The notes under the pieces: generated by a model
The model's input: the letters and a program-made list of their open reading frames with translations, nothing else
Told to the model about the DNA's origin: nothing
Databases searched by the model: none
Position numbers and translations under genes: made by a program
Shown: positions 1 through 64,000 of the stretch, piece after piece
How the letters are laid out: each line of letters starts with the position of its first letter
Position numbering within the stretch: the first letter of the stretch is position 1
Assembly: GCA_051294375.1 (NCBI GenBank)
Contig: JBJCIZ010000744.1
Span: 500,264 to 564,263 of the forward strand
From: Paraspadella gotoi
Taxonomy: Eukaryota > Animalia > Chaetognatha
Length of the DNA stretch: 64,000 nucleotides
Direction: 5' to 3'

Positions 1-1384
1 TAATCAGTTTTAATTAATCAATTAAGTAAATAAATTAATCAATAATTAATTTAATTAGTATCAATCCGTCATCCGTGCCAATCTTAGCAAAAAGCTCCAA
101 TAACTCGTGATTGGCTGGTTGGATTGGAAAGTTTTGTGTGTGAGTAGGAAAGTGTGTGATAAAGCTGGATATAAAGTTTCGATGGAATCGGTGTGAGTGG
201 AATTAGTTTAAATGGAAAAACATAAGTCGAATTTACTAAAATCTTTTTACTTATTTTAACCAATAAATACTTCTAATTAATCAATAATTTGGATGGAATA
301 GATTGAGTTGAAATTTTGTGTGTGGGTAGGAAAATGTGTGCGAAGGTCTTGATATAAAGTTTCAGTGGAAACGTAACCAGTGGAAATGAGTTTAAAATGA
401 AAAAAAATATGAAGTCACATTACTTGAATCTTTTTATTTTATTTTAACCCATGATAGAAAATTTTTGTGCAGCCGGTAGGAAAGTGAAGTGAAGAAGCTC
501 GGTAAAAAGTTTTGACGGAATGCAAGTTGAAAAAAATTATGCAAGTTGAAAAAATGATGCAAGTTAAAAAAATCTTAAAGCATAAGGCATCGTCGCTATT
601 GCATAAAAAGAGAGAGAAGAGAAGAGACAAGAGAGCGTGAAGAGAGAGAGAGTGAGAGAGAAAGAGAGGAGTGAGAGAGGAGAGAGAGAGAAAGGAGACA
701 TAAAATAAAAAAATCTTAAAAAGAGCTCAAATCGAGCCAGAGAGCCCACTATCATAGAAAATCTAACTGAAAAAACCCGGGAAAAAAAACGAATGAATCA
801 TGCGAATAACGAATTATGATGTAATAGTAATTGATTAAGGGTAACTATAATTGATGATCGTAATAAGTAATTTATTGATGTAATCAGGAAATGATTATTC
901 GATCTCGATGATAATCAATTATTGAATGCGATGAATAGTCATTCCTGATGCGATGAATTGTCATTCATTGATAGCGATGATAGTCCAATAAAACAAAAAA
1001 TGCGTGAATCGAGCTGAAAGAGAGAGAAGAGAGACGAGAGAGAGAGAGAGAGAAAGAGAGACGAGAGAGAAAGAAAGAGATAAATCACGAAAATCTCGGA
1101 TGGAAAATATGGGATTTTTTTTTGTATTGAAAAAAAAGCGCGGAATAAATGGTAATAATAAAAAAATTTTAGAAGAAAAAAATAATCAAAATTTTCTCAA
1201 AAAAACAAACGATCACGCAGAGATCGGCAGAGAGGGACATGACACATCACAGAGAGCAAAAAGAGAGAGAGAGACAGCCCCTGCAGAGAAAAAAGAGAGA
1301 GAGAAAGAGCGAATATATAATAATTAAAGAGAGAGAGAGAGAGAACTCTACAGCCCCTTTACTCGTTAAAGAAATCAAGCAAGT

Positions 1385-1455
1385 ACCCATGGCGCTGACG
1401 TAGCGTGGAGCTTTTCCTCTACCCAAGGACCCTCCCGGGTTTCGCACCCTGTTCG
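1385..1455 (+). repeat. Degenerate, truncated tRNA-like head related to the heads of the twister elements
   Basis: tggcgctgacgtagcgtggagcttttcctctacccaaggacctcccgggtttcgcaccctg resembles 35815-35871 (A-box-like start, acccaa-gga, gggttcg..ccctg); no twister core follows. Confidence 0.4.
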
Positions 1456-1521
1456 CCGGGCATCGTTTTTTAGCATTAAAGTGAAGCCAACATTATATCT
1501 AAATTTTTTTGTAAAAGAAAA

Positions 1522-2092: not shown

Positions 2093-2311
2093 TGATTAAA
2101 GAGAGCTTTACAATTTTGCTGTTTTATCTTGCTATTCATTAGAACTGATAAACGATCACTTAGTATCATTCGGATTAATTTCGCTAGTAGTATAATTTAG
2201 GCTAGTCTGTCCTCATAACTAATCTCAGAATATGAGAAATGATTTTCGACATAACTGTATTCAACCAAAAAAACGAATGAAACATCTTGTTACAGAAAAT
2301 AATCAAGGCTA

Positions 2312-3510
2312 TCACAGTCTAGTCCCACCGCTTAGCTCAGGAACGGTGAGATTCAATTGTTTTCATGATTTCTCGGAAATGAAAGGGCAAATTCGCCGAA
2401 ACGAAAAACGTTTTTGCCTTTGTTCAGTTCTGGAAGAACGATTGTCTTAGCGTGCAGCTGCAGTGGGACGTGACGGGCCAATGGCTGACGGGTTTTTAAA
2501 GCCTGTGGTGGGGGGAATGTTATAACGAAATGTTTTTTAAACAAGAATTCTTAATCTCACTATTTAATTTCCTTGGTTTAAAAAAAAAACTAATTGTATC
2601 ATATCGGGTTATCATATCATCATCGACAACAACTTCTCCTTGCTGAAGGGCGGAACCAGAAATTTTTTGCGGCTTCAAATCGTTGAGATTAGAATATTGT
2701 GGTCGCCGACGACGGGCGTGTTGAGCCCGTATGACAAATGTGCGCGGACTTGATGCTTGAATCCGGATTCGGGTTGAACTTCGATGAGGGAGCAGCCAAA
2801 GTTTTCGTCGAGGACCTCGTACTGCGGAAGAGAAATGGAGTTGGGGGGGGGTGTTTAGGAAGAAAAAAGAGAGTATTGGGGTTGGTCGCTTTACTTTCTC
2901 TCACCCTCGTCACGGCCTTGAAGCCGGTCTGGCGCGGAGGGGCGAGTCGCTTCAAGTCTTCCTCGTCAAGTTCGTCTCGACGAGTTGCGCGGCGAAAGTG
3001 TCGGCGGTCATGGCGTCGCGAAATGGCGCTACAGTCGTGCGGAACCCGGCGTTTCCCTATTCATTTTATAATTAATTAATAATAAGTATATCCGCCAATT
3101 CTCCTCTCGCCCTCCTCTCACCCGGAATTCCTTCAACGGGATCTCGATGGTTCCATGAGGCAGAGTGGTTTTCCTTTGCAGATCGCCAAGTAGACCTTGA
3201 GCGCGGTCGAGTGGCGAAAGGCGCTTGACCCTCTGCGTGACGACGTCCGAGGCGGACAAGAGGAGAACTCCGGTGACTTCCCGGTCCAATCGGTGGAGAG
3301 GGTCAGCTTGGAATGACCCAAGGCTTCGGCCAGTTTTGGAAGGACATCGTCGACCGAGAGGCGGACGCCTGGACCGCCCTGGCAGGCGAGTCCATAGGGT
3401 TTGTCCAGTCCGACCAAGCCGAAGTGGTTGAAGACGACTCGCCGGCGGAGGAGCTCGAGAAGGTGATCCTCGAAGCCCACGTTAGATCCGCCACGAGGTC
3501 TTTGTATTTT
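2312..3510 (-). pseudogene. RPUSD4: Indel-rich duplicate of the 3' exons of the RPUSD4-like gene (probably uncollapsed haplotype or raw-read copy)
   Basis: 2090-3540 is nearly identical to ~9436-10901 apart from scattered 1-nt indels that break the frame. Confidence 0.75.
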
Positions 3511-3539
3511 CTACGGGAAGAGTGGCGTGGGAAGAGAGA

Positions 3540-6500
3540 ATCTGTAATTCTGAATGGAATTATGATTCTTATCGAAACCCCCCCACATTAGCCTTTTGTC
3601 TCTCCAAAAAGGCGAGACACCGCGCTGTGACCAGACATGTGAAACAGAAACAAAAGTCAAACGAAAAAATACTCTCCCGGCCTCAGCGGCAGCAGAGCTG
3701 CTGCAGGGCCCAGTCCCGACGCTGCATCACTCTGTCGAAGTGCTGCTGAGCCGGGGGAGCGTCACTAGTCCGGAAAACGCCAAAACGAAGCGCCCCATGA
3801 GACGTCCCTGCAGTAAAACCGGAAAGAAGGTCTGATCTCCGGACCAGTCTCCGGCCCTGAGAAGGACGCCGAGATCGACGCCGCGGGCGAAGGCTTCCGG
3901 AGACCGCCATGGCACGAGTAGATCCTGGCGGAGCGTCGACATTCGCCTCAAAAAGAGCGCCTTTAGGATCGCCGCAAACCGTTGAGGCGAAAACGGAGTA
4001 AAGGGCGGCGAAGGGGCGCAGAAAAGGAAAACGTGAGACGGCGCTAAACATTCGCGGACTCGGAAGCCACTCCTCAGAGCGCAATGGGCAACGCGATGAC
4101 GCCGGCAGGGCGTCCACCCTGAAGGACGGGCCCATGTGCCCAACGCGATCTGTCTTGGAAAGCTTGGACGAAACAAAACGCCCATGATCCGCGGCGAGCG
4201 AGCAGTGGGCCTTGATCACACTTGAGCGAAACTATCTCCGACGGCCTCTGGCCGAAAGCGAGTGCCAAAAGAAAAAAGAGAGAGAGCGCCGAAGAACGTG
4301 AGCGGGAGACGGCGGGGAGGGCGAAGTCCAAAACGCGTAGAACCAACGCCGCATCCCACGGAGGAAAACATCCGGCGAGTAGGGGGACTTCCGCTCGAAA
4401 GTCCCCTTGAGAAAACGTCGGACACGAGGGGGTGTTCCCCACCGAGTACGAACCCCTGTGCCGCAAGGTGGCCGAAATCGCTGGAGCGGTGAAGGTTCAC
4501 CGTGCTGTACGACAAGCCTAACCCAACGAGATGGGCTAGGTACTCCCCAACATCCTTCAGAGACGCATCAAGTCCTCGAACTTCTTACATTGAAGGAAAG
4601 AGCAGAAGGAGGTCCAGGCTCGAGCGTAACGATCTCGCGTCGAGCCTCTCCAGCTGTCGGCGATGATGTCGAAAGGCCGAGTCGCTGAGGTCGTCGAGGT
4701 CGTTCGCGCCGCCGAAAATCTGCCAAACGACCAGCTTGAGACGGTCGGCTTGCGCGGCGGAGATCCTGTGCTGAGGTCGATGACGGCGTCCTCCGGGACC
4801 GGAAGGCGTCGAGCCTCCAGAATCTTCAGGTTCAACAACGACGGAATCACTTCTGGGCTGACCAGAAAGGGGCGATCCAGAAGGAAGATCCCCGACGACT
4901 CCTCCAGCTTCCGGATGACGCTCGGGAGGAGAGGCAGGTGGAGGAAAGAGAAATGCCCGATCGAAGATCCAAATCTGGGCGAGGGCGTCCACACTCCGTT
5001 GGCGCTCCGCCTTTCCGAGAGAAGAAACGGCGCACCTGCGTCGAGTCCTTCGTCGCAAAAGATCGATGGAGGGAGTGCCGAAAGGTCTCGCAGATCTGAC
5101 GGAAGATCCGTGGAAGGAGATGCCCAATCCGCAACTAGGCGTCCCCTCGACGCCGCATCCGTCACCAAGTTCTCCTCTGACGACAGGTGACTCCCGGGTG
5201 ATACAGATCCCCAGGGTATGGGCGATCAGCAGAGACTCCCGGACAACCTCGTGTAGCTCCGTTCGAACGGCTGCACGTGCGCTGGAGACAGAGCAACGAC
5301 ACCAGCTGGTCGGGCCTACCAAAGGAGATTCGTATTTCTCAGAGAGCTGCCGAATCGAGAGAGGAAGATCTTCAAACACCATGAACTCCTTCACATTGAT
5401 ATGGTGATGGACATCTGCAGCCTCCCAGGTCCCCTGTGAAGCTCTCCCTGGGAAAAGGATGCCCCAACCCTCCTGCGAGGCATCCGTCGTCACTACGTGG
5501 GCGCAATCTTCTGGGGCAGATCGCCCACCGGCGCGACGCAGTCCTCCAGGCGAAGGCGACTGAACCACTCTAGCTCCTCCCGCGCTGAAGCGTCTAACAG
5601 CGGTTGGGGCGGATCGAGATCTTCTCGGAGTGTAGACGCGGTTGACGTTCCTTTGAATCCGGGCGGAGTGGCAACGGAGAAGCGGAACTGCGAGCCGTGG
5701 CCGCCGTGGCGTGTTCCGAAAACTGAAGGACTAAACGCGCCGGCGGGAGAGACGACGAGAGGAGTGAAGTCGCTAAACTCCGGATCGATTCCAACTTGGC
5801 GGCGGAAGCGAGATCTGATGAAGCTGACCGTCCCAATGAAAACGAGGAAATCGAAGGACTGATAGGAGTCAGGCTCGAACTTTCCCGGTGGAGAATGAAA
5901 CCCGCCTCCAAGAGCAGTTGGACCGCCTTCAACGTCGCTTGGTGACACTCCTCTTCGATGAGCCCAGGATGAGGATTCGTCGATATAGAAGAGACAACGA
6001 TGCCTCTCTGCCTCAGCCATTGACTAGCGGGCGGTTTGTCTTCATGAAGAGCCACGGGCCCGTCGCCAAACCGAAGGGAAGAACCTTGTACTGAAGATCC
6101 GACCCTTCCAAATGAATCGTACAAAACTTTCGATGCTCCTCGTTGAAGCGGAAGGGGGAGATAAGCGTCGCGCTAGGTCGATTGAGGCGCCCCAATCTCC
6201 CCGTCGAAACATCTTCCTGATGTCCTTGACCCCTTCCAAGCGGAAAACGGAGGTGGGAGAGAAAAGCGGCGTTGAGAGCTCAGGTTTGAGAATGGCCTCC
6301 ACCTCCATTCCTTCTTCGGTACAAGGAAGAACCTGGAGTAAAAAACCCGGAGAGGCCTCTACCTCCTCGATCGCACCCTTTCTCCAAGGCGGCGGAGATT
6401 TCCGTGCCGACCGCGTCGTCCCCTTCGCCGAAAGATGGCGTTGCGTCGGCAGGACGAGGAAGACGGTTGGGATCGCCTCCGATCGCGATCTGAAGCCCGA

Positions 6501-7820
6501 AATGTTCGTCAAAATTGGAGGGGTCGGCCCGACCTGACGAAATCCGATCTTGAAGAGGGCCTGCAGCGGACGAGGCGGGACTGCATCGGCAGAGAAACCC
6601 GTATTTCGCAGGCTTGGCTCCCCTGTCCTGCCCGTTTCCCGACTCTGGACGAGTAAGGCTTCTTGCCGCTCTTCCGCGGCTTGAAGTTGGACTTCGACGC
6701 TTTTGAAACCTTGACGACGTTATCAAAGAAAGCGAGGGGTGCGGCGGATCGATAAGGCGGCGTTGACCGCTGACGAACTTGATCCGAGCGATTTCCGAAG
6801 AAAAACCTCTCGGTGGGAGCGGCGTCCTGCAGCGCCCCACGCAGATCGGACGGCGCCTTCGACAAAACCGAACGTCGAACTTCCAAAAGCGCAGCGTTAA
6901 ACGCGGTTGCCTGGATGGACGAATATCGCGTAGGGGGGGGGGGCGAAGCCGCGAGGGGATCGCTCCACCACCTGATCTGCTGAAATACCCGCCTTGATGG
7001 CGTCCGACAAAAGGCGTAGCTCGTCGGCGACAAAAAGAGCGGCGTGACCCGACGCGCCCGCCTCCTGCATCGTGCGTAAATGTTGACGGTAGACAGGATA
7101 ACTGGTGTAGATAGCCGCTTTCGGAAGGCGGATCAACACCCGTCGTGATCTGGAAGTGGAAACGACGCCGGTGAGGCGTGGTCCACCCAACACGAAGGCG
7201 CGAGGTTTGCGGAGGTTTGTGCGAGACTCCAGCTTCTCGCCAACTCCCTGACTCCGAGACGTGGACGAAGCGAACGCATTTGCTTCGAAACTCCATCAGA
7301 CGGCGACGCCGCTCCTTGGCGGCGGGCTGCAAGGCGTAGAAAGGCCGATCGACGTCTGGGTCGGACCTCACCTCTCCATCTCCCGATGAGGTGTGTCCAG
7401 TCCCGGAGCTGGTGGCGACGCCGTGTGCCGTCCAGCGGCGAAGGCGAAGCGTTGCGTCTAGAGGCCGAGGCAGGAGCCCGTGGGCGGACTGCTCTCTGGA
7501 AGCGAAGGACTCGTCAAGGACCAGCGGCGAAGGGAAAGGCGGAAGTGAAGTCGTCCCGTTCGATAAGAATCACATAACGTAAGCAAAACGAGAAAAAATA
7601 GATTACATATCAAATCGAGGAAACCCCCCCCCCTTCTTTCTCTCTATCCACAAATATCCAGCAAAAAAGAAAATATTTGAAACTAAACACACACAGAAAA
7701 AACGGAAACCGAACCACACCCGCCGAGACCACCCACCCAACCCGGAGGCGAAAGGGGCGGCGGGCGGGAGAATGTGGGGGGTTTCGATAAAGAATCATAA
7801 TTCATTCAGAATTACAGATT
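3540..7820 (-). mobile_element. DIRS1-like tyrosine-recombinase retrotransposon (gag-like, RT, RNase H, MT-like, YR), frameshifted in this assembly
   Basis: RT motifs FRLEGVKDIRKMFRRGDWGASIDL and YKVLPFGLATGPWLFMK; RNase H VVTTDASQEGWG and HHHINVKEF; MT-like PSIDL..VDALAQ..FPP; YR SWRGSTRDRYARAW, LLALAFGQRPSEI, STRAMA. A ~50-bp inverted terminal repeat lies at 3540-3589 / 7771-7819. Confidence 0.9.
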
Positions 7821-8537
7821 CTCCTATTCTTAAAACCCCCCCCACATTAGCCTCAGTAAACGAGAAAAAAACGCGTGCGTGTGAACAAAAATATAAAAAA
7901 ATAAAAAACGAAAGAAAGAAAAAAAAGAGAAACAAAAATTTGATGGAGGGGCAAATAAAAGAATTTTGCAAACGAACTTCGAATAAAAGAACATCCCACA
8001 TTAACGCTCCCGGCGAAATCTTTCCATCTCCTGGCGAGCCGAATCCCGCCATTTCCTTGAAAAAAACCCGTTGAGGGCGGTCCTTCAAAAAATACTTTTT
8101 CCAGGCCTCCAGCCGTTTGCGCACGCCTCCCAGGGGCTGCGTGTAGGCTGTCCACCCCCCGAACCACACCCCTGGTGCCGGGTTGCGGCGCCCCTGCGCG
8201 CGCGGCCCGAGGCGCCGTAACCGAGGTAACGGAAACAGCGCCTAAAGCAGAGAGGGGTGGAGAGAAACACCGACCGGGGCGCGAGGCATCTGGCGACGCA
8301 GTGCGCCCACGTGAATCTCAGGGTCCTCAAACCCTTGTCGAAACCGAAGATTTCGTCGGAACTGCGATCGCGCGATCCTTCTCGAGATTAATCGCGCGAA
8401 TTCTTACGATCGTCGAAATAAAACCAAAGAGACGAGCGTGAAAGTTCAAAATTCGATATGGAAAAGAATAATATCGAAGGAAAGGCCCAGCCGATAATAA
8501 TCGAAAAAAAGCGCTAAAAATAAATCGAAAGCGACTG

Positions 8538-8562
8538 NNNNNNNNNNNNNNNNNNNNNNNNN
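8538..8562. other. Assembly gap (N run)
   Basis: 25 n characters. Confidence 1.
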
Positions 8563-9658
8563 TTCCCATTAAAATTTGAATTTGGTCGGCTACCGCTATT
8601 CAAAGCATGTCAACAAATAAATTCCTTTTTTTCTCTCTTTTTACTGGTTTAAATTTCACTTTTAGTCTTTAGTACTTTCGCGAATGTAATTTCTATTCTG
8701 TTATTTTTGCTCGAGGTTTTTGACGGAATTTTTTTTATTTTTTATAAACATTCAGTAAATGCGAGCAAGAGGTCTTTTTTTAAAAGTTATTCGAAAAAAA
8801 GTTTAAAAAATAAGTTACAAGTTTAAAAATTATATTTATTATAAGATGAATTGCTTGTACAAATTTAATTTTAAGAAATGATTATGAAAGACCTAGTAAA
8901 CACCTATAGTTTAGGCTATACAGGTTGCAAGGCCTGAAACTGGATGACACGTAATTAAGTATAAAAAGGCTAACACAGCGAGCTTCTACGAGCAGAAAAA
9001 CGCTAATAGAAAGAAGTGATGAAATTGAAAAACAATTACGAAGGTTTGATTAACGCGAAATTTGAAATCACAGTAGCAAAGATGAAATTATATCAACGAT
9101 AACAAATCTATTTGGATATATGTCCAAGTTTATCAATTTCTATAGTTTCTGTACATACTATATATACATGATCATGAAGTTAATGTACAATTTTTATTTG
9201 TAATTGTGATTGTCTAGTTTGTGTTTCTTGATTTTTATTATTTTCCATTATGTTCGACTTTTGAATTGTCCACACCTTCGATACCTCACATATTCATCTT
9301 AATAACTGAACTTCAATTTTCTATTACTATATTTTTTTAAATAAATCTATCGAAAAAAAATGGTTTGTGTTCTAACAGTAAAAAAAAGCTGTGAAAGAAA
9401 AGGGTTGGCCAACTTTATCTAATCAACGGTGACTTTTTTTGATTAAAGAGAGCTTTACCAATTTGCTGTTTTATCTTGCTATTCATTAGAACTGATAAAC
9501 GATCACTTAGTATCATTCGGATTAATTTGCTAGTAGTATAATTTAGGCTAGTCTGTCCTCATAACTAATCTCAGAATATGAGAAATGATTTTCGACATAA
9601 CTGTATTCAACCAAAAAAAACGAATGAAACATCTTGTTACAGAAAATAATCAAGGCTA

Positions 9659-12600
9659 TCACAGTCTAGTCCCACCGCTTAGCTCAGGAACGGTGAGATT
9701 CAATTGTTTCATGATTTCTCGGAAATGAAAGGGCAAATTCGCCGAAACGAAAACGTTTTTGCCTTTGTTCAGTTCTGGAAGAACGATTGTCTTAGCGTGC
9801 AGCTGCAGTGGGACGTGACGGGCCAATGGCTGACGGGTTTTTAAAGCCTGTGGTGGGGGGGAATGTTATAACGAAATGTTTTTTAAACAAGAATTCTTAA
9901 TCTCACTATTTAATTTCCTTTGGTTTAAAAAAAAAACTAATTGTATCATATCGGGTATCATATCATCATCGACAACAACTTCTCCTTGCCTGAAGGGCGG
10001 AACCAGAAATTTTTTGCGGCTTCAAATCGTTGAGATTAGAATATTTGTGGTCGCCGACGACGGGCGTGTTGAGCCCGTATGACAAATGTGCGCGGACTTG
10101 ATGCTTGAATCCGGATTCGGGTTGAACTTCGATGAGGGAGCAGCCAAAGTTTTCGTCGAGGACCTCGTACTGCGGAAGAGAAATGGAGTTGGGGGGGGGT
10201 GTTTAGGAAGAAAAAAGAGAGTATTGGGGTTGGTCGCTTTACTTTCTCTCACCCTCGTCACGGCCTTGAAGCCGGTCTGGCGCGGAGGGGCGAGTCGCTT
10301 CAAGTCTTCCTCGTCAAGTTCGTCCTCGACGAGTTGCGCGGCGAAAGTGTCGGCGGTCATGGCGTCGCGAAATGGCGCTACAGTCGTGCGGAACCCGGCG
10401 TTTCCCTATTCATTTTATAATTAATTAATAATAAGTATATCCGCCAATTCTCCCTCTCGCCCTCCTCTCACCCGGAATTCCTTCAACGGGATCTCGATGG
10501 TTCCATGAGGCAGAGTGGGTTTTCCTTTGCAGATCGCCAAGTAGACCTTGAGCGCGCGTCGAGTGGCGAAAAGGCGCTTGACCCTCTGCGTGACGACGTC
10601 CGAGGCGGACAAGAGGAGAACTCCGGTGACTTCCCGGTCCAATCGGTGGAGAGGGGTCAGCTTGGAATGACCCAAGGCTTCGGCCAGTTTTGGAAGGACA
10701 TCGTCGACCGAGAGGCGGACGCCTGGACCGCCCTGGCAGGCGAGTCCATAGGGTTTGTCCAGTCCGACCAAGCCGAAGTGGTTGAAGACGACTCGCCGGC
10801 GGAGGAGCTCGAGAAGGTGATCCTCGGAAGCCCACGTTAGATCCGCCACGAGGTCTTTGTATTTTCTACGGGAAGAGTTGGCGTGGGAGAGAGAGAATTT
10901 ATTACCGCAACGTCATTTGAGAAGAGGCGAAGAACAGACAGAGAGAGAACCCTTATCCTGGTCATTGTAAGTTCAGTTATACTCTCCTACTTTAAAAATG
11001 GAGTTGCCTTCGACTTTACCAAACTTACATATTTTAAACATAAATAAGTTATGAATATCCTCGTCGTTTCGAAGCTGAAATAAAAATTTTATTTAAAGAC
11101 GGGAAAGTTTTCATTTTTTTACAAGGAAAAAACCCTAAAAACTTGTTCATTTGTGCATTTTAAAAGATGCAATTATGCATTAATGATTTAAACAAAGGCC
11201 ATTCCAAAATCTTGTTCGTCATTATTTCCGCCCACAAGCTTTGTCCGATTTAAATAAGCAGAGAATCCGGTTTAATAATTCAAACCGGAACCATCGCATT
11301 GAAGCGAAGAGACGACCGGAAAGAATCGGCACAACATGAAAGAGAAATCCCGTTTCTAAACTCGTCGGAGGGAAAGAGGGAGAGATAAAAAAAAGAGTGA
11401 AGAGACAGTAATTATTGATAAGTGTTAATGACCGAACCGTTCAATATAAGCAGTTCCTGAGCTTCGGATCAGGCTGTAACACCATGTTACAGGCGGGTTA
11501 AGCGCCCCGTCCCTCTTAACTGCCAGACGACCACCGGGCTAGAACCCCGGACCTTTGGGTTGGGAGGCGAATGACTTGCCTCCGGCACCAATGGCCGCTG
11601 ATGAACGGTTGGTGGATTTTAGTCCACCATAAGAGAAACAAAAAAAACAAGTTTGAGCAAACAATGTCGGATCTGCCTACGATAATTAAGTGGTAATCAG
11701 CTGATCCGATGATAAATAATGACAACTCTTTCTGACCTTAAATTTGTGATCTTATCAGATTATATAACAAATCATAAGCAGATCCGACTAAAAAAAAACA
11801 AAAAAACGCAAACTCCTCGGCAGAGCCGGAAGTAAAGACTAACTTGGCGAGGCGGAACCGATATGAGAATAAGTAAAGACAGACCGACCGTTTTCCCTCT
11901 CCTCACCTGAATCCCTTTGAGTCGAACATCTTCTTGCCCAACTTGGCGGGAGGATAGAGGACCTTCTCGACGGCCGTCGCCGCTTCCCACTTGACCGACG
12001 GCGCCGCGACCGCCACCGACGCCGCTTCACCGTCGGTCGGGCCTTTAGGTTTGGTCCGCTTCCCCGTTGAGGAGGCGCTGGCCTTTGACGAGGGAGACAC
12101 GGCCTTCCCGACGCCGTAATCGTACTTGGGAATCACGCGTTTCGCGGATTCGTTTTGGTCCAAGTTGTTCATGAAGAGAGATCCTTGAAAATCGGTTTTG
12201 GACGAAGATGACGACGACGCTTCCTTCTTCGACTGCACATCACTAAATCGAGACTCCTTCATTAGGGATGACGACGACGACGCTTCCTTTTTCTTCTCAG
12301 GAGCGACTTTCTTCAACCCAGATTCCACCAATAGGGATGACATAGACGCCCCCTTCTCCACTTTCGACTCCATCTCGGCTCCGACGCCGCGAAAATCCGA
12401 GTTTTCCACGTACAACGAATCGAAGTAATTTAAGTCGGTCAACTCTTCCTTGATTCTGTCCGGCTTCGCCTCCCGATCAGAGCGTCGTCGACTCATATCC
12501 TCCAAGTCCGATTTCCAATCTCCCTTCAGCCTTTCGTCCGTAGAGACGAAATGTGTGGTGGACGTTGATGTCAATCCTAGTTGTTCGTCGAAAAAATTTG

Positions 12601-23600: not shown

Positions 23601-26600
23601 ACCAAATGTTAGTCGAGGATCGTCGCGTCCGACGGTCAAATATGTTGGTAGGGAATATCTCTCGCGAATTAGCGAGTAAAAGGTTGATTAATTAATTGAT
23701 TAATACGTATAAATAATTATTAATAAAATGACAGATTACTACAACGAAGGCGGTTATGAGTCTCCCTGCGCGATCGGTTTGAGTGAATTCACGGACAATC
23801 GAGAAGATCGTAAACCTTTCAAAAAAGTCAAGAAATCAAAAATGACTTGACGTTGTATGTACATTGTAACCTAAATAAATAAATAAATAAATTTAATAAA
23901 ATTAAAGAAATTTGAGTAAAGAGTTTGTTTAAAAAAATAACTAAAACAGTAATGTTTTCTAGGTCTTCAACTAAAAATAGAACAGATATGTCAATGCAAT
24001 TTGACTAATAGAAAAGATTACGCTTTGGCTCCCCTCCCCAATCCGCCAAAGTTTTGAAATGTTCACATTCTAGAGTAAACTCACCTCGCCGACGACGGCG
24101 TTCATGACGCCGAGAATCGACTGGACGCGAGCGTCGACGCGTATGTCGTCCCCGGCGCCGCCTTTTAGCAGAAAATCTCGTTCGACGGCGTCGTCGCCGA
24201 CGATGCGAAGGCGACGAGGGCGCTCCTTGGATTGGAGAGATCGGAAGTCGGCGTCGAAGCAGGAGACGCGCGCGTGGCGGAGGGGATCGGGTTTGGAGAA
24301 GGACGTGTATTGGCCGGGGATCTCGAGCTCAATTCCTGGAGGATGAGATTTAAACCAAAGACGATAATAAAGAGACGACAGAGTAAAGGGTGGAAAACAT
24401 TGGAAATAAAAAAAAAAGAGAAAAAGAGGTTCCGAGGTAAGTTAAAACCTTACCCGTCGACGCTGCGTCGAACTCGGCCAACCAAGGCGCCCAGTCCATC
24501 AACTTCATGCTGGTCGGCCCCCGGACCGAAGGCGGCACCTTAAGTTGCTCCAACAAACTGGCGCCGACTCGAAGGAGTTTGCTTCCGTCGGCGATGCAAA
24601 TCTAAAACGAAAATGAATACGTTTGTTGGTTGATTAGATAAATACTAAATAAATAAATACTAAATAAATAAATACTAAATAGAATTCACGTTCGTTTTCA
24701 CGATCAACCTCACAAGCGGGATAATCCCGTTTAAAAGGGGTTCTGACTCCGAGTAAATGCCGCTTACTATGAACTGGGTCACAGGAAACAGAGTTCAAGC
24801 TTTAACGAGTAAAATACTTCTTGCCATGAAACCCAAGATAAACTTGAGTCTCTTTAAATCTTGAGAATAAAAACCATTGGTTTTACTTTTTGGTTCCTCT
24901 TCCTAGACTCGCGGGCCCCGACTTTTCATATCTAAAGAAAATTTCGTCATAACTAAAATCACATAAAAGAATATAAATAAAAAATTAGGCATATAAAAAA
25001 TGTCATGTAATAAAAAATGTAAATATGATTTCAGCTTCTTCCTCTCAACACAATTGCCGGTTTTTTCCCCATCAATGAAAATTCCCCTTCCTCCCTAAGT
25101 TAAACACAAATTCCGCTTCCCATTCTCTATTCGACTTTCCGCTTCTTCCCCTCAACGCAATTTCCGCTTCTTCGCCTTCTCTTTCCCGTTGACGACCTTC
25201 TCCACTCCGTCGACCGTGTGCGAGAGGACGCGCCCATTCCGCTCCACGACGACTTCCGTTCGTCCGTTGTGAACCGTCCTCGTCTTCCTGTTGGACGAGG
25301 TCGTCGTCTTGGTCGTCGTCGTCGTCTTCGTTTTCCCCTCCTCGTCCGACGATTTTATCGTCGTCGTCTGAATGGTGACGATGCCGCCGCCGGCATCACG
25401 GCCGCCGGTGGCGGTGGTGATGTTCATGCTGAAGTTGACGCTGGATCCGAAATCGCCAAAAAACTGACGGAACAACTGGTCGGGATTGGTGAAGCGGAAA
25501 GTTCGGAACTGAGAACCGGGACGCGCGGATTGGAGCGACTGGCCGCGGCCCAAACAATCGTAGTGCTCTCTTCGATCCGGGTCGGAGAGAACTTCGTAAG
25601 CCTCGGCAACCTTCTTAAAGACCTCTTGGGCTCTCTGCTCGTTGTCTGGGTTCTTATCCGGATGCCATTTGAGCGCGGCTTGTCTGTAGGCCTTTCGGAT
25701 TTCCTCTTGGTCCGCCGATTTGCGGACTCCCAAAATTTCATAGTAGTCGTCGCTTTCCACGTTTGACGACATTTTTAAGGCTGAAGACTTCCTGGTTACG
25801 TCTTGTCACGTTTACATTAGATATTCAAAAATAACGTGAAAATGTCGCTCACCGGTTTTAATCATTTTTTTCTCAATGTTAAAAAAATAAACAATCCTAC
25901 GCGTTTTAAAAGCAATAAAAGTACATATATTTTTGTCACCGTTTTGCATTTTCAATAAATGAAGATTAAATATTCTGACTATACTATGACTCGATGAAAT
26001 ACATTGACTATGCATGTATGAACATCGAAAGTTAACACTGCGAAAGCGATTTACTCCAATTTTCCCAAAAAAAACATTTTTTTGGGCATACATACATAAG
26101 TCGCGTTGTTCCTTTCACATTTGGCAAAATATGATTTGAGGTCAACGTTAAAACGACAATGGCGTCCTTAAGCTTACCTTAAGCTTACCCTCCTCCACAA
26201 AAAACTCACCTCCTCGATCTTGTTGAGGATCCAGTCGACGATCCTCTTCCTCCCCCTTCCAATCCTCCTCCCTATCGGCTCCAGTTTCTCCTTCAACTCG
26301 TCCAAAGATCTTCGAAATCTCCCCTCGTCCATCTCCTTCTTCGCCATCGCCGTCCTCGTCTCCGCCACCCACTTCTCCAGCGCCACCTCGGGATCGAAGA
26401 GCAATTCCAAATTGGAGATCATCGCCTCCACGACGGGCAGCTTGGCATCGAGTTCGGCGACGAGGGCGGCGATGTCTGGCGCGAGATCTTTCGACGCCGA
26501 ACCCGCGAAGACTTTGAGCGGGTAGACGACGGCGAAAGGGTAGTCGGCCGCGGCGCGTCGCAACAGCTCGATGACGACCGGCGCCGCGGGGGTGTTGAGA

Positions 26601-35600: not shown

Positions 35601-38216
35601 AGGGCTGAGAGGAACAATTCAAAATTTGGAATAAAATGCGTAGTTTTGAAATTATTTATCTGTACCTTATCACAAGTTTCCTTCCCTCGATTATCGCTCA
35701 ATCTCATTTGCATAATGTCGTAAATGTCGTAAAGAACACACAGTTCTAAATATATAGATTGTGTAGCGGTAGTATTTCATACCCCGCTACTCGTCCGAGA
35801 ATCAGCAGCACCTATGGGGCCGGAGGTAGCACGAGCTCCTCCCAACCCAAAGGACTCGGGTTCGTGCCCTGCTGATTCACACAAGTAAAAGCGGGACGGG
35901 GAGTCCAACCCACCTGTAGTGACGGACTACAGCCCGATCCGAAGTTCGGGACCTTGTGTGCAACGGACGGTGAACTGCTCGCGGCATCGTCTTCCACAAT
36001 TGATTATTTAACCGATACCCCTTTCTTAGTATCAAACCCCCAATTAACATGGAAATAAATGTCAAAAAGCCCGAGCACCACCAGCCAGCACCCGCACGTC
36101 CAAACGACCGACCTCCGCATCCCGTCCGCGAATGACTCTGCGCCAGATGAGGAAATTCTCGAAAGAACTTTCCGACGATCCTCTCGATCCTCGTCGCCAG
36201 CGAGGCGGAGACGTCGTCGAGGGCGGCGATCACATGACCGAGGGAAAGGAGAAAGTCGGGGAACAGGCGCAGCCGTTCCCATGGCAACGGGGAGTCGGAG
36301 GAGACTTGGATTTCCGCCTCCGTCGCCGAGAGGACGCGTTCGAACATGAAGCTCATCACGTCGGACTCGCTTTCCTAAACGTGAGGGGAACGAAAGGAAT
36401 CGATCGTTATTGCGTAATCGGTATATTATGTATTCTGTAATTCGCCGCCTCGGGCAGAATTTAATTAATCAATTTTTCTCTTTTTCATTCTTCCACGCCC
36501 ACCTTCGTAAACTTCTTGGCGACGCCGGCCAAAAGGGAATAAGTCTTGACGGCGCCGGCGCGACGATGGGCGCGGAATTGCGAAGACGTGGCGCCGGAGG
36601 AGGTGGACGACGAAGCCGAGTGGGTTTCGTCGAGGAATTCCGAATCTCGCAAGCGACGCTGAAAAAAGTGGAATATCTCCAGCGGAGAGTCGACGCCGTC
36701 GTCGAGGGCCATCTCGTCGTCGGCGATAACCTCGGCGATGATCTTGACGCACTCGTAGCTGCAGGTCGACGCTAAAGAAGACATTTCAGCATTTCTGAGA
36801 AAAGACAGACATGAAAATTGAAAAAAGTCAAACACGGCCGTTGACAATCTTCAAATCTTTTCGACCCACTTGTGATTGATCCAAAACCCCAAGCGATCCA
36901 TCAACCGCTCGTAAGCGGCCACCAAGGGACGCCGCAGAATGTAGGCGTGGCGGGCGAGAAGCTTGAGGCCTCCGCGAACGACGTCGTATGATCTAGTGGC
37001 GCTCTCGACTTCCTTGGAGACAGATTTGAGGGCGAGATCGAATACGAGGCGAGTCTCCTCCTCGGTCAGAGTGGAGAATTGGTAGAGGACTCCCGTCAGG
37101 CCGAAGAGGCATCCGCTAGTAACGAGATAGGATTAATTATTATTATACAATATACAGTACACGACTTACTCCCTTCTAGTATTGGAAATTAATTAAAAAA
37201 GCCAATCACTTGTAACCAAAAAGGAGTTTGTCCACCTTCAAACACGATTTCAAAACCTCGAACCTGCAAATGTTAAAGTCTCTGGACTCGAGCACCGTCG
37301 TCTTCTCCATCGTCGATCTCAGCGTCGAGAGGAAAAACCTCTTGAGTGTTTCGGCGAAAGGACATCGATCGGGGAAGAGCTCCGCGAGGAGGCCGAGAAA
37401 GTCGTAGAGCTCCTTGAGCAGAGAGTGTTGGGTCTTCTTCACCTCCAAGCGAACGTAGGCGAAGAGTTCGTTTCCAAGTTTAGCCACGTCCAGATCAGGG
37501 AAATCTGGAGAAAATCATATCACGTCTAGATATACATTTTCTCAGCATCATATCAGAGAGAGAGAGAAAGTCAGAGAGAGACAAAGATCTTGAATTAAAA
37601 GTAAAACTGATTGGCTGAGTGACGTTCACCACACAGCTTGGATAACAATTCTTACCCTCTCCGTCCTTCCTAACGGAGGCCAGGCGCAAGAGTTTGCGCA
37701 AGCACTTGGTCGCTTCGATCTTCACCGGAGAGGCGTCGCAGCATTTGATCAGCGTCGCGCACGTCGTCTTCAGCGCCGGCGCGTGAGGATGCAGCGAAGC
37801 GGCGTCGCGCTCGGCCACTTTGCCCAAGTAGGTCGTCAAAAAGGAGAGGAGGTGCTTGAGGACGTCTTTTTGTAGGTCTTTGTTTCGGTAGACGTCGGGC
37901 GATTGGAGGAATCGTAGCACGCCCTGAGAAGACGAAAGGGAGAAATGAAAGGAATGGGGGGGATTCCCACATTTCCTAACTTGATGATAAGAATGAAATG
38001 AGAGTTTGCCCAATCACACCCACTCTTCAAAAAACCCACTACCTTGTTTGCATCGAAAATCATCAAAGTGCAAAGTCGAATCTCCTTTTTCTTCTTAACG
38101 TCGTCGAGCGCCGACGAGATCAGCGCCGCCACGTGGTGACCCAGGCGCGGGAGGTCGGCTCCGCAATCGAACAGCGCCGCCAGACCCGACTCCACCTTGT
38201 GAACACCGGACGTCAT
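20627..38216 (-). CDS. PRKDC: DNA-dependent protein kinase catalytic subunit (~15 exons, including a ~7.1-kb exon at ~33316-26209)
   Basis: [31 protein letters not shown] and ATQ cluster, [13 protein letters not shown] region, kinase [13 protein letters not shown] and [21 protein letters not shown] end [11 protein letters not shown]. Confidence 0.95.
21241..21377. repeat. Intronic minisatellite, ~22-24 bp unit (caggataagaaggatttataaatgtt-like)
   Basis: About five imperfect tandem copies. Confidence 0.85.
22436..23850 (+). CDS. Probable five-to-six-exon orphan gene nested antisense in a PRKDC intron
   Basis: ATG at 22436 with donor gtaagt at 22509; open GC-rich exon ~22593-23045; further frame-consistent AG/GT exons at ~23148-23278, 23344-23422, 23483-23647 and 23735-23850, followed by AATAAA runs. 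One donor (~23046) is non-canonical or mis-sequenced. Confidence 0.55.
25152..25772 (-). CDS. Intronless DnaJ/Hsp40 (DNAJB6/B8-like) nested on the same strand in a PRKDC intron
   Basis: [40 protein letters not shown]-domain, F-rich linker [17 protein letters not shown]-rich C-terminus. Confidence 0.9.
35762..35998 (+). mobile_element. Solo-LTR-like element 2 (tRNA-like head plus twister-like ribozyme) in a PRKDC intron
   Basis: TGTAG...CCACA termini; exact 4-bp TSD attg at 35758-35761 and 35999-36002; tRNA-like region 35800-35877 with A/B-box-like motifs closed by aatcagcag/ctgctgatt. Confidence 0.75.
35878..35960 (+). ncRNA. Circularly permuted twister-like ribozyme
   Basis: cacacaag-taaaa-gcgg-GA-CGGG-gagtc-CAA-ccc-ACC-tgtagt..actaca-g-cccga-UCCG-AAGU-tcggg-ac-cttgtgtg. 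T2 is AC/GU, compensatory relative to copy 1. Predicted cut between 35906 and 35907. Confidence 0.7.
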
Positions 38217-41500: not shown

Positions 41501-43851
41501 TCTACTACTCAGGATTCACCGATGGAACCAAAAGGAGTAATCGGAAGCCGAAGGTTCCTGGCGCCAAGACCCTGCCCGATTTTTTCGGCATCGTTGGAGG
41601 AAACGGGGGCCATGGGGCCGTCGGGCGTCGTGATCGGCGCGGGCGATGGGGTCGGCATGGGGGGCTGAAGGGCCTGGTCAACGATCGGTGGCGGCGGAGT
41701 GAGACAATTGGCCATCTCGTCGGTGAGATCGCGAATCACCGGGTGATCGATACCGCGAACTAGGAATGGCGGTAAAAAGAAACATTATGGCAACAGCCGG
41801 GTTGCGCTGTGATGCCCATTGGGATGGGGCATCTCACTGTTGGCTTTGGGGGCTTCCGACCCTCAGTGACGCCTCCAGTCACTGGCGCGGTTACCCTAGG
41901 ACGGTCTCGCTTTGCCACACAGAGGGGAAGTCGTTAGGACTGTGGATGGAACACTAGCCTGGGATGGTGTGTTCCCCTCTGAGCCAATGGATTTGGCTGA
42001 CTGATGGTGGACGTGAGGCGGTGTGAATATACCGCCACAACGTTATGGCCGGTAATTTTTGTCTTAGATCCAATTTTAATAATATCCCAATGGATTTTTC
42101 TTCCCCAAGGCCGTCACGCCACCCCCCCCCCAAATCTCTCACCTCCCCCCTCTTCCTCATTATCGCCGAGTTGAACGGATCGAATATCGACGATCGTGTT
42201 TTCGTCGTCGTCGTCGTCGTCGCCTCCTTGCTTCCGAGTTCAGATCGAGTCGAGGCCCGTCGTCACGACTTGCCACGTTCAGACTTGCCACGTTCAGATC
42301 GAGTCGAGGCCCGTCGTCACGACTTGCCACGTCATCGGCGCCACGGTCGCCACCCTCATCGTCACGCGATCGTCTCGTCGTCTTTCCACTTCCTCGTCGC
42401 ATCTTTCTCTCTTCTTTCTCTTCTTCCTCTTCCTCTCCTTCCTCCTTTTCTCCTCCATCGATTTTCCCGCTCTTCCTCTTCCTCAGCACGATCCTCAACG
42501 GGCGGCGTTCCACTTTGCGGCGCGCCCTCTTCACCGGCGTCACGCAACACGGCTTCTTGAGACGGAGGCTCTTGCGGAATCTTCGGTGGCCTTCGGTGCC
42601 GACGTCGAGGTCCGCTTCTTCTTCCGCGGGCGGAGCCGGCGCCGCGGCCTCCGAAGATTCGGGGTCAGCTGTCAAAGGAGACGCGGCGTCGTTGGTCGAA
42701 CTCGCCGGTGGAGCGACGGGGCTTTCGGCGTCGGATAGAGGCTCGTCCTTGACGGCGACGACAGTTTCCAAGACGACGGGGTGAACGCCTTTGAGTAAAG
42801 GAAGGAACTATCTGAACATTACAATTCACATTTTACTAACAAACATATTAAGCAACTGCAACCTTTAGCGAGCGCGGATTTCTTAGTCAACGGGCTGCGA
42901 AGGGCGAGTCGCTTGGGAGGCGTGGCCGAGGTGCATAGGGTGAGTCGCTTCCGGAGGAGCGAGGGAGACGCTGGTGGAGAAGGGAGGACCAGGTTGGAGA
43001 TTCTCGACGAATCCGGTGGATCCGAATCGGGGGGAATTTCCTGAAGGATTAGTCGTGTCTAGTTTCAATGACGAATTAAAATCTGGGATTTCCTATTGAC
43101 AATTGGTACTGGGTCGTCTCGTATCATTGACGCATACAATTTAAAGGCGACTTGGGAGAAATGGATCATACAAAATCCCTCCCTTCTGCAACGTTGATTT
43201 TTTTAAAAATTAAAAAAAATTGATTTTTCTTCCATGAAATTTGCAGTCTCTTGTAACGTGCGTAAGTCGGTTTTAGTAAGTTTGTTTTATAACATTAAAA
43301 AATTGATAATGCCTTTCTCAAATTCAAGCTAAGCTATATTTACTTTGTAGGATTCATGTTTGATGTTATGATATTAAAATCACTTCCATTACACAATACA
43401 CAGCATACCATACCCCGTCTCTAATTCAGAGGGATAGTTAAAACGGAATCCAAAATGAAATCGCTCCGCCGACAGGAAAGGAAGAAAAAGACTCTCGGGG
43501 GTCGAGACTCTCGTCACTCACGGGTTTCTTGGCCGGCGACACGAAGCTGGTCATGGCGTCGTCGAGATCGACGCCGCATTGGCGCCTCACCACCCTGGCG
43601 CCCTCTTCGAGCGTCCACTCGACGTCGTCGGGCGTGGGGCCGAGGCTGCCGTCGAGGAAGGCCTCGCGAAACCCGCGCCGACCCATCCAGCTCCGTCGGC
43701 CGGCGTCCTCGACGATGAGGAAGATGTCGGAGTCGGTGAGCGAAGAGAGTTTGAGGACGACCTCGAGCAGGATGCCCGCGATGGTGGACTCGATGTGCTG
43801 GAGTTGAGTCACGAGGGAAGAGATCGAGGACGATGACAACCAAGACGCCAT
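38535..43851 (-). CDS. Putative transcription factor: divergent MADS-like N-terminus, long low-complexity middle (S/H/Q repeats), C-terminal FLYWCH/WRKY-GCM1-type zinc finger
   Basis: Chain of GC-rich minus-strand exons (43851-~43474, ~43040-42863, ~42789-42142, ~41760-41512, ~41444-40516, ~40218-39736, ~39470-39220, ~39138-38950, ~38810-38535). N-terminal LKLSSLTDSDIFLIVE; C-terminal WKGFKY..FKCQVPGCHGRL..H..C. Exact exon joining is uncertain. Confidence 0.55.
40231..40475. repeat. Intronic minisatellite, ~40-bp unit aaatcaggaYgatattaaaacggttttRgggYgacaacaac x6
   Basis: Six near-identical tandem copies. Confidence 0.95.
41786..42039 (-). mobile_element. Solo-LTR-like element 3 (hairpin-rich 5' module plus twister-like ribozyme), intronic
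   Basis: Inverted termini tatggc/gccaca (TG...TA on the minus strand); flanks acat (41782-41785) and acgt (42040-42043) differ by one base. Confidence 0.65.
41837..41922 (-). ncRNA. Circularly permuted twister-like ribozyme
   Basis: ctgtgtggc-aaa-gcga-GA-CCGU-cctaggg-UAA-ccgc-GCC-agtgac..gtcact-g-aggg-UCGG-AAGC-cccc-aaa-gccaacag. T1 is UCGG/CCGU, covarying with copies 1 and 2. Predicted cut between 41893 and 41892. Confidence 0.7.
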
Positions 43852-60570: not shown

Positions 60571-60640
60571 GATGAGAGGGGAGGGGGCAAAGGAAGTTGG
60601 AGTCAAAGTATTAATTATTTTATTATTTTTTTAAAAATTT

Positions 60641-60665
60641 NNNNNNNNNNNNNNNNNNNNNNNNN
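60641..60665. other. Assembly gap (N run)
   Basis: 25 n characters. Confidence 1.
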
Positions 60666-60789
60666 TTATCGTTCGATCGATCGGTAGACGTGTTTGTGGC
60701 CATCTCATTCATTCATTCATTCATTATCTTATTCACCTCATTCCCTTCTTCCCCTCATCGACTCCCCCCCCCCCCCCATCTTGCACTCC

Positions 60790-60995
60790 ACCAAGCCCGT
60801 CTCCGCCCGTTCGCCCGATTCCCGCCCAAGGAGTCCGTCGAGGAAGACCGACGATGAAGAGACTCTTAAGTACGGAGCAGCTCACGCACGTCATCCAGAT
60901 ACTTCATCCCCGTCAACCATCTGCATGTTGGTCGTCATCGGTCAACCATCAACTCCATCTCCTTCTACACGGAGAAGGGGGGTTGGTCAACTGTG
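60790..60995 (+). pseudogene. PSEN: Error-rich, inverted presenilin 5' exon (TM1)
   Basis: DDEETLKYGA.HVIQI..P.TICML.VI read across frameshifts on the plus strand. Confidence 0.65.
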
Positions 60996-63830: not shown

Positions 63831-64000
63831 AAGGAAAGTTGGAGTCAAAGTATTAATTATTTTATTATTTTTTTAAAAATTTCAGATTTTAACTTCATAG
63901 CTCAGAAGTGCAGACATTTCTTGACCGGGCACAAACAACGGTTTGAAAACACAATGATAGCAATAAAACATTAAATCGAACCGATGGGACATGCCCGAGC

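Follow-up and report, generated by a model that had tools for sequence, protein, structure and literature searches.

Three short inserts in a 64,000-nucleotide stretch of Paraspadella gotoi DNA, the whole of which is called the window here, carry the same ribozyme-like motif, raising the question of what kind of element they are and whether the motif could cut their RNA. Their borders bear on the first part of this question. In the family of copy 1, other genomic copies align on through 11398–11422 and break off at 11398 and 11631/11632, as seen in contigs from other loci. We therefore place copy 1 at 11398–11631, flanked by AGAG on both sides. The preliminary description had given 11423–11629 with a TSD of taag, which the contig breaks contradict; the taag repeat is a coincidence, its left copy falling inside the element. 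For copies 2 and 3, the sizes and TSDs first proposed were recovered. TG..CA ends had been described for the family. Read on the ribozyme strand, they are present in copy 2, but copy 1 ends in TA..CA and copy 3 in TG..TA. The TSDs are all 4 bp and differ among the copies (AGAG, ATTG and ACAT/ACGT).

Copies 1 and 3 are members of many-copy families with sharp ends and many different flanks. In run X7, 115 contigs of the copy 1 family break at 11398 and 130 plus 106 at 11631/11632 (agreement 0.40–0.42), and 78 plus 70 contigs of the copy 3 family break at 42039/42040. The summed contig depth (millions, versus 182 in unique flank) does not measure copy number, and we draw none from it. Likewise, contig coverage from run X9, which is RNA only by guess, carries no information on expression. 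Run X10, from another organism, gave three contigs, two of which touch an element end at low depth; these were left unused. The three copies in the window are 58–68% identical overall, with 32–42% of aligned positions differing, and their terminal inverted repeats amount to no more than 5 of 8 matches, and they have no poly-A or simple-repeat tail. No second LTR, PBS or PPT was observed at the three loci in the 64-kb window, flanks included, and no two-LTR copy, PBS, PPT, LTR-to-LTR joint or empty site among the joints listed (the best 15 of 79 and 15 of 69). Thus, of the non-autonomous LTR family proposed earlier, the multiple copies, the integrase-type 4-bp TSDs, the sharp ends and the P5-permuted twister fold are borne out, but no paired LTRs with PBS and PPT were seen.

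The ordered motif P5-P2'-GA-T1'-P1-NAA-P2-T2-P3-P4-T1-AA-T2'-P4'-P5' is real in all three copies, as had been reported, and the cut predicted for copy 1 from the twister consensus falls exactly where it had been placed. Helices were compared by coordinates, since MAFFT misaligned the core of copy 3; three sequences gave no covariance model. P4 has 5, 5 and 3 bp and P5 has 6, 8 and at least 4 bp in copies 1, 2 and 3, respectively, with the strand termini in P5. Nine unpaired or tertiary core positions are identical in the three copies: two A residues in L1, the G and A before T1', U, A and A in L4, and C and G in T2. The U before T1 corresponds to the conserved L4 uridine (PMC5408937). Both pseudoknots form in every copy, T2 with two pairs and T1 with three Watson-Crick pairs, and each shows compensatory change between families (T2 GC/GC versus AC/GU; T1 CCG/CGG versus CGG/CCG); P3, P4 and P5 are re-paired as well. 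The compensatory changes described earlier are therefore upheld except that T1 has three pairs, not four. This covariation evidence rests on three sequences. Within the copy 3 family, the complete variant table shows only two core positions varying at 5% or more, the P3-loop bases 41873 and 41877; for the copy 1 family, the variants listed (40 of 79) do not allow the core to be called invariant.

Features of the three copies and of the locus of copy 1 (positions in the window)
Feature	Position	Strand	Details and basis
Copy 1, whole element	11398..11631	-	234 bp, solo-LTR-like; family loose ends and TSD
Copy 1, left TSD	11394..11397	+	AGAG, 4 bp
Copy 1, right TSD	11632..11635	+	AGAG, 4 bp
Host intron of copy 1	10866..11906	-	GT..AG; pseudouridine synthase gene (PF00849); copy 1 sense to gene
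Copy 1, 5'-terminal hairpin	11610..11629	-	also opens copies 2 and 3
Copy 1, outer helix	11436..11609	-	11609-11602/11443-11436; encloses tRNA-like and twister domains; folding
Copy 1, tRNA-like module	11524..11600	-	box A-like 11590-11579; box B-like (GGTTC) 11547-11536; long closing stem
Copy 1, P5-permuted twister fold	11450..11523	-	descriptor searches and helix comparison
Copy 1, P5	11523-11518/11455-11450	-	
Copy 1, P2'	11515-11512	-	
Copy 1, catalytic G and A	11511-11510	-	
Copy 1, T1'	11509-11507	-	
Copy 1, P1 linker	11501..11506	-	6 nt, self-complementary; self-duplex -8.3 kcal/mol; no stable hairpin
Copy 1, L1	11500-11498	-	
Copy 1, predicted cleavage site	11499..11500	-	twister consensus position (PMC8501958); after element nt 132
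Copy 1, P2	11497-11495	-	
Copy 1, T2	11494-11493	-	
Copy 1, P3	11492-11474	-	
Copy 1, P4/L4	11473-11456	-	
Copy 2, whole element	35762..35998	+	237 bp, TG..CA; TSD ATTG 35758-35761/35999-36002; ends from TSD alone
Copy 2, box A-like	35815-35826	+	
Copy 2, box B-like	35858-35869	+	
Copy 2, twister	35878-35960	+	predicted cut 35906/35907
Copy 3, whole element	41786..42039	-	254 bp, TG..TA; TSD ACAT/ACGT 41782-41785/42040-42043
Copy 3, box A-like	41986-41975	-	no clear box B
Copy 3, twister	41917-41841	-	predicted cut 41893/41892
Copy 3, P1 linker	41901-41894	-	palindromic; self-duplex -11.0 kcal/mol; no stable hairpin

Could a structured, GC-rich repeat resemble a twister by chance? The Rfam twister models, put forward earlier as a check, gave no gathering-score match in the window: copies 1 and 2 had none at E<=10, and copy 3 had only a partial, non-significant match to twister-P1 (15.2 bits, E 1.5). 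Our descriptors were also fitted after the fact, both being written once the copies had been seen. However, the strict descriptor found copies 1 and 2 in the window and matched once in 2,878 shuffled windows; a version loosened post hoc to a 3-bp P4 found all three copies and gave 10 matches in 2,205 shuffles. P3 and P4 formed together in both matching copies of the window but in none of 30 database stretches that share their fixed letters. These 30 stretches, 1 viral and 29 metagenome matches to a degenerate motif pattern, had been candidate relatives; all lack the P3 and P4 pairing and were set aside as chance matches, serving as the control. The copy 3 pattern had no match in viral sequences. 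Whole-element folding z-scores are -3.35, -3.51 and -2.92. Together with the re-paired helices and the position of each match, inside a TSD-bounded element with the predicted cut after nt 132, 145 or 147, these controls leave chance resemblance a very remote prospect.

The fold departs from the canonical twister in ways that bear on its activity. Canonical P2 has four pairs, and the G-C pair closing L4 is described as "essentially invariant"; according to a review, it has been suggested that altering the length of P2 disturbs the active site (PMC5408937). In none of our copies does P2 consist of four Watson-Crick pairs: in copies 1 and 2 a 3-nt strand faces 4 nt, giving three pairs with a 1-nt bulge, and in copy 3 a C-A mismatch adjoins L1. 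The L4-closing pair is A-U in copies 1 and 2, and T2 of copy 2 is AC/GU. P1 is a 6–8-nt linker that can form only 1–2 pairs in cis but 6–8 in trans in copies 1 and 3; in copy 2 it is not palindromic (-1.4 kcal/mol). Folding without pseudoknot energies assigns the active P2 a probability of 0.00 in copies 1 and 2. Instead, the copy 1 monomer is predicted in a blocking hairpin (p 0.98), copy 2 with its catalytic G paired in a slipped register (p 0.75), and copy 3 with P3/P4 at a probability of at most 0.02.

The preliminary description overlooked the imperfect P2, the palindromic P1 and a tRNA-like module. In copies 1 and 2 this module directly precedes the twister on the 5' side, with GGTTC as box B in both, and the tRNA-like part begins ~30–50 nt inside the element. 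In copy 1, it is a candidate Pol III internal promoter. Aligned to a tRNA-Gly of the window, copy 2 is beaten or equalled by only 2 of 2,000 shuffles; the likeness is weak elsewhere, the scores of copies 1 and 3 being matched by 289 and 1,365 of 2,000 shuffles. Neither ARAGORN nor Rfam calls the module. The presence of an A/B-box module in copies 1 and 2 makes the elements look like Helenus-type TRIM LTRs. The outer helix around the tRNA-like and twister domains recurs in copy 2 with altered letters (35792-35797/35964-35969), with pair probabilities of 0.81 and 0.89.

Based on these observations, we give about an even chance to the reading that the inserts are solo LTRs of three related, non-autonomous, Gypsy-mobilised miniature retrotransposons of Helenus-like type, with a P5-permuted twister predicted to cut the element RNA. 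The element is probably an animal LTR retrozyme with a twister, its catalysis being predicted from the fold. Pol III would initiate from the tRNA-like promoter in the 5' LTR and continue through it, since none of the copies has four consecutive T on its sense strand. A tRNA ligase may then circularise the RNA, as in plant LTR retrozymes; a Gypsy reverse transcriptase and integrase would copy and insert the element, producing the 4-bp TSD, and LTR-LTR recombination would leave solo copies like these three. The palindromic P1 in two of the three copies suggests cleavage through pairing of two LTRs, and hammerheads are known to cleave as dimers via a short palindrome (PMC6765202). In a Pol III-driven LTR retrozyme of this kind, P1 would gate the twister and restrict its cut to transcripts that hold two LTRs, freeing a circle and leaving thousands of intronic solo copies harmless. 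We offer this extension tentatively and think it less probable than not; P1 is dispensable in vitro and in mini-twisters (PMC5408937), so dimers may not be needed.

Copy 1 is indeed sense to its host pre-mRNA, as the preliminary description had it; copy 3 is sense in an apparent GT-AG intron of a minus-strand gene, and copy 2 lies antisense between DNA-PKcs coding stretches. A GPI exon matches named animals, many of which are arthropods, at 72–73% and unnamed proteins at 76–81%. A solo copy with a single weak, misfolding-prone ribozyme would cut its host intron slowly or not at all. For copy 1 such cutting is doubtful, given its non-canonical P2, the 6-nt linker that stands for P1 and the blocking hairpin predicted for the monomer.

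The twister might instead terminate Pol III transcription. In that case the copy in the 3' LTR alone would cut, yielding a linear RNA with a ~90-nt terminal repeat, from the tRNA-like module to the cut site, which would undergo TRIM-like reverse transcription and form no circles. This would fit the absence of an oligo-T terminator from all copies, many published Helenus LTRs having a T-run after the tRNA-like part, and Cassandra offers a precedent, its Pol III transcripts being linear and bearing short terminal repeats. The outer helix, moreover, draws on LTR sequence that precedes the tRNA-like module, and a transcript begun inside the 5' LTR may lack it. Yet the two LTRs are identical in sequence, Pol III may start upstream of the arm of the outer helix, and a palindromic P1 in two copies suits symmetric cleavage of dimers; fish Helenus LTRs, among those inspected, also have no T-run and no ribozyme was seen in them. 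We consider termination unlikely. Alternatively, the fold may be a relic with little or no catalytic activity that sets no RNA ends and persists as a signal for structure or packaging. The non-canonical P2 of all copies points this way, as do the blocked monomer folds and the sense placement of two copies in apparent introns. The P2 defects appear to be family-wide, with no indel among the variants listed for copy 1 (40 of 79) and no variant at the copy 3 mismatch. Nevertheless, families differing at 32–42% of aligned positions share their catalytic and tertiary nucleotides, and both pseudoknots covary, which is more than a scaffold requires, and we find a relic unlikely.

A further possibility is that the inserts are not LTRs at all but complete short retroposons, such as a tRNA-headed SINE or a derivative of a Penelope pseudo-LTR, or a MITE-like DNA element. 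The tRNA-like head would suit this, as would the internal region not found at the three loci. SINE and Penelope insertions are marked by variable 5' truncation, a 3' tail and a longer, variable TSD, traits that these elements do not show: the families end sharply on both sides and away from the cut site, unlike in Perere-3, where the TSD abuts the cut; there is no tail, and the tRNA-like part is internal. Animal non-LTR retrozymes have TSDs larger than 4 bp, and the near-absence of terminal inverted repeats argues against a MITE-like element. We regard this group of explanations as improbable.

The solo-LTR reading can be set beside described systems, cited here for the accessible parts of each source. 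Like plant LTR retrozymes (PMC4918200), our elements are non-coding, have a 4-bp TSD and a motif of self-cleaving type in the putative LTR, probably occur as solo LTRs, which are common in plants, and have a ribozyme whose predicted fold is blocked; in both, mobilisation of Gypsy type is inferred. Unlike them, they have an animal host, a P5 twister in place of a type III hammerhead, a tRNA-like module and shorter LTRs (234–254 bp versus ~300–400), and they are known from solo copies, whereas the plant elements have a two-LTR form, PBS/PPT and circles. Since an LTR retrozyme is defined by a hammerhead in the LTR and our motif is of twister type, the element would work like a retrozyme while standing outside the class as defined. 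Helenus TRIMs and TRIMp3 (Kojima 2024, PMC10886601) share the short LTR, a tRNA-like module, here with box A- and box B-like stretches, and the solo LTRs, and Helenus shares the 4-bp TSD of its animal families and the TG/TA..CA ends. Our box A, however, departs from the TRGCY consensus of Helenus, and copy 3 has no clear box B. The accessible part of the Helenus paper mentions neither twister nor self-cleavage, and the LTRs inspected by eye showed no twister. In the wasp LTRs of Helenus-2_SyJa and -2_SyUm, the tRNA-like module appears by eye to be followed by a complete type III hammerhead (PMC10886601). These two elements come with an internal part, and the hammerhead, unremarked in the accessible text, is placed where the twister sits here.

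Type P5 twisters (Rfam clan CL00120; PMC5408937) share L1 NAA/GA, L4 U-NNN-AA-NN, a 3-bp T1, a 2-bp T2 and P3 with our motif, which differs in its P1 linker, imperfect P2, A-U closure of L4 in two copies and sub-threshold score in Rfam. As in the T-variant twisters of Perere-3 RTE elements of Schistosoma mansoni (PMC8501958), a twister would serve a retroelement, and copy 2 resembles T-variants in Table 1 of that paper in core spacing and in its P3/L2 letters. Perere-3, however, is non-LTR with a type P1 twister whose cut sets the 5' end beside the TSD, whereas ours lies mid-element. The short palindromic stem and animal hosts recall dimer-cleaving Penelope hammerheads and animal non-LTR retrozymes (PMC6765202, PMC7229834, bioRxiv 10.64898/2026.07.22.740005), in which the palindrome favours cleavage by two neighbouring copies (PMC6765202, PMC7229834); unlike our elements, those are hammerhead-bearing tandem non-LTR repeats without 4-bp TSDs, PBS or PPT.

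Our search of the accessible literature found no twister in an LTR or TRIM, in line with the earlier remark that no described equivalent was known. That literature places LTR retrozymes, with their hammerheads, mainly in plants and treats animal retrozymes as non-LTR; the one role in retroelements that we found reported there for a twister is to process the 5' ends of RTE-type LINEs. A figure legend in PMC8501958 places some T-variant twisters upstream of LTR-type RT domains, which may bear on novelty. If our reading is correct, a twister in an animal LTR would be a second retroelement role for this ribozyme, ribozyme-driven RNA circles would extend to Gypsy-dependent animal elements, and there would be a hint of how a TRIM transcribed by Pol III sets its RNA ends when it has no terminator. 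Gating of a twister by dimers would be new to ribozyme biochemistry, as would activity with a shortened P2. Taken with the wasp Helenus hammerheads, the elements would point to an animal LTR class built of a tRNA promoter and an interchangeable ribozyme. These predictions can be tested cheaply on transcripts of 80–90 nt.

All three copies of the solo-LTR-like element, read by coordinates, carry the strand order of a P5-permuted twister, P5-P2'-GA-T1'-linker-NAA-P2-T2-P3-P4-U-T1-AA-T2'-P4'-P5', which upholds the shared ordered motif of the preliminary description. The order agrees with the passages on twister anatomy in PMC5408937 and with naturally occurring twisters tabulated in PMC8501958 (Table 1). 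Helix-by-helix reading also confirms the compensatory changes described for P3, P4, P5, T1 and T2. T1 switches from CCG/CGG to CGG/CCG between copies with pairing kept, T2 switches from GC/GC to AC/GU, and P3, P4 and P5 keep their pairing through different letters. A strict descriptor matches copies 1 and 2 and gives one match per 2,878 shuffled windows; a relaxed descriptor matches all three copies and gives 10 matches in 2,205 shuffles, both having been fitted with the copies in view and the relaxation made afterwards. P3 and P4 are both formed in none of 30 database stretches with the same fixed letters, versus both matching window copies. Within the copy 3 family, core differences of at least 5% are confined to two P3-loop bases; in the copy 1 family, the core changes among the 40 of 79 variant rows listed are two P3-loop bases and one pairing-preserving P5 change.

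The copies are twister-like in every tertiary feature but depart from the canonical form of P2 and score below the Rfam threshold. P2 lacks four clean pairs in all three copies, and its length may be critical according to the relevant part of a review (PMC5408937). The L4-closing pair of copies 1 and 2 is A-U, not the nearly invariant G-C. The Rfam search proposed earlier returned no significant twister match in the copies, the best being a partial twister-P1 match in copy 3 (E 1.5). When the copies were folded without pseudoknots, T1' of copy 1 was predicted to pair with P2/T2 in a hairpin (p 0.98), copy 2 adopted a slipped register with the catalytic G paired (p 0.75), and P3 and P4 were absent from copy 3. 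The ribozyme of plant retrozymes is likewise predicted to be blocked, as reported in part of PMC4918200; therefore such folds would lower the expected monomer rate and may still permit function. The short P2 is common to copies 1 and 2, whose T2, P3, P4 and P5 nonetheless differ by compensatory changes; this points to a variant fold with short P2 that may have stayed under selection. Copy 1 is indeed sense in an intron of its host gene. Cutting of the pre-mRNA from within this intron, also suggested earlier, is doubtful given P2, the L4-closing pair, the Rfam result and the blocking predicted folds.

P1 is a linker of 6–8 nt without a stable hairpin. It is fully self-complementary in copies 1 and 3 (-8.3 and -11.0 kcal/mol) and not in copy 2 (-1.4 kcal/mol). 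A short palindromic stem in hammerheads leads to cleavage as dimers, according to a section of PMC6765202. For the twister, dependence on dimers is offered here only as a hypothesis, because P1 is dispensable in mini-twisters (PMC5408937, in the section on these).

Element borders were located by aligning contigs of public sequencing runs to 11250–11800 at an 80% likeness cut-off. Matches numbered 24,747 of 7,042,937 contigs in run X7 and 17,874 of 4,416,630 in run X1, for a stretch that also includes a second repeat (~11640–11790). Coverage steps up at 11398, not 11423. In X7, 115 contigs of the copy 1 family end before 11398 and 130 and 106 behind 11631/11632; the continuations past the family ends are unrelated (agreement 0.40–0.42). 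This rise and these break-offs replace the earlier span of 11423–11629, and its taag/taag duplication is coincidental. For copy 3 (5,371 matching contigs in X7, 7,887 in X1, 1,585 in X2 and 348 in X9), pieces begin at 41785/41786 and 78 and 70 contigs of X7 end behind 42039/42040, confirming the span 41786–42039. The duplication reported for copy 2 is present, and the ends of that copy are drawn from it alone. The sharp ends on both sides, three distinct 4-bp duplications, TG/TA..CA/TA termini, and the lack of a tail or of a real terminal inverted repeat are consistent with LTR ends made by an integrase. Summed contig depth does not equal copy number. The variety of flanking sequence shows that loci number in the hundreds at least, and the presence of three copies within 64 kb points to many more. 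Copies 1 and 2 are similar (E 2.6e-14; BLAST, nhmmer). Copy 3 was not picked up by the sequence-similarity search and was located through the motif search; global identities among the three are 68%, 58% and 61%.

Coordinates of the elements and of other features in the window
Feature	Position	Strand	Remarks
Copy 1	11398–11631	-	AGAG on both sides; fold 11523–11450; host intron 11906–10866
Copy 2	35762–35998	+	ATTG duplication; fold 35878–35960
Copy 3	41786–42039	-	fold 41917–41841
Weak match to 5' half of copy 2	1345–1470		E 0.012; includes tRNA-like part; no twister behind
MITE-like repeat	11640–11795		many-copy, unrelated, inverted ends, hairpin fold; ~8 bp from copy 1; family loose ends 11640–11645 and 11688; partial second copy 2044–2093
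Degenerate tRNA-Gly	49459–49532	-	near centre of palindrome
Imperfect palindrome	49222–49800		~580 bp
Near-identical duplicate	2153–3541 and 9500–10900		pseudouridine synthase gene 3' part; 98.7%, mostly small-gap differences
N gap	8538–8562		between the duplicate copies
Insert	3536–7823		~4.3 kb; inverted ends 3536–3583/7776–7823; broken minus-strand frames
Open frame	26174–33340		2,388 codons
21-bp tandem arrays	~59660–59890 and 62870–63120		within 57796–63119
Nested inverted repeats	62016–62174 and 63873–64000		within 62016–64000

Overlooked in the preliminary description of the elements was a tRNA-like module: in copies 1 and 2, P5 is immediately preceded, in the same orientation, by a box A-like motif and a box B (GGTTC) inside a long closing stem. 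Copy 3 has the box A-like motif only. Alignment to the window's tRNA-Gly was matched by 2 of 2,000 shuffles for copy 2, which is significant, and by 289 and 1,365 of 2,000 for copies 1 and 3, which is not. ARAGORN and Rfam did not call the module, and the sense strand of all three copies has no run of four T. The stretch 1345–1470 is perhaps an old relative without ribozyme, and we read the palindrome around the tRNA-Gly as a foldback or MITE-like tRNA capture.

In the portion of PMC10886601 covered, animal Helenus elements are defined by a short LTR that contains a tRNA-like module, together with a 4-bp TSD. The window elements share the TSD and perhaps, in part, the module; the internal part of Helenus is not seen at the three loci. 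The same portion contains neither 'twister' nor 'self-cleav', and no twister was noticed in the accompanying sequence file, viewed in parts by eye and throughout by short-motif search. By eye, the LTRs of two wasp families in supplement DataS1, Helenus-2_SyJa and Helenus-2_SyUm, each with an internal part according to that paper, seem to hold a complete type III hammerhead immediately downstream of the tRNA-like part, with ~12 nt of loop I–loop II complementarity; the covered text does not mention it. If true, a tRNA-like promoter followed by a ribozyme in an animal TRIM LTR is already in published data, unremarked. Insect elements with type III hammerheads were announced as work in preparation in the pertinent part of a 2020 review. 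In the openly available papers searched, no LTR or TRIM was reported to carry a twister. The window elements may work like plant LTR retrozymes, but they have no hammerhead and so fall outside that class as defined; the two-LTR form and circles are features of the class, whereas only single-LTR copies are seen here.

The observed fold, covariation, family ends and TSDs can be joined into a cycle to which we give about an even chance. Pol III would transcribe from the 5' LTR, both LTRs would be cleaved with the help of P1 pairing, the released RNA would be ligated into a circle, and a Gypsy reverse transcriptase and integrase would copy and insert the element, leaving the window copies as solo leftovers. 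What is inferred in this cycle is that the promoter is active, that a two-LTR form and a helper element exist, and that the RNA is cleaved and forms circles. That the twister instead serves as terminator of a linear RNA is possible but unlikely. Slightly less credit goes to an inert relic fold. A non-LTR or MITE-like unit is improbable beside the termini and TSDs, and chance resemblance, beside the descriptor counts, very improbable.

The window is gene-dense, with introns, and includes pseudouridine synthase (PF00849), DNA-PKcs (PF20500) and presenilin (PF01080). Its GPI exon is 72–73% identical to named animal proteins, many of them arthropod, and 76–81% to others. From its look and its neighbours, the long open frame holds most of DNA-PKcs in a single very long exon. 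Pfam found no match in the frames tried of the ~4.3-kb insert, which by eye looks like a DIRS-type retroelement. The duplicate of the pseudouridine synthase 3' part is possibly an assembly artefact.
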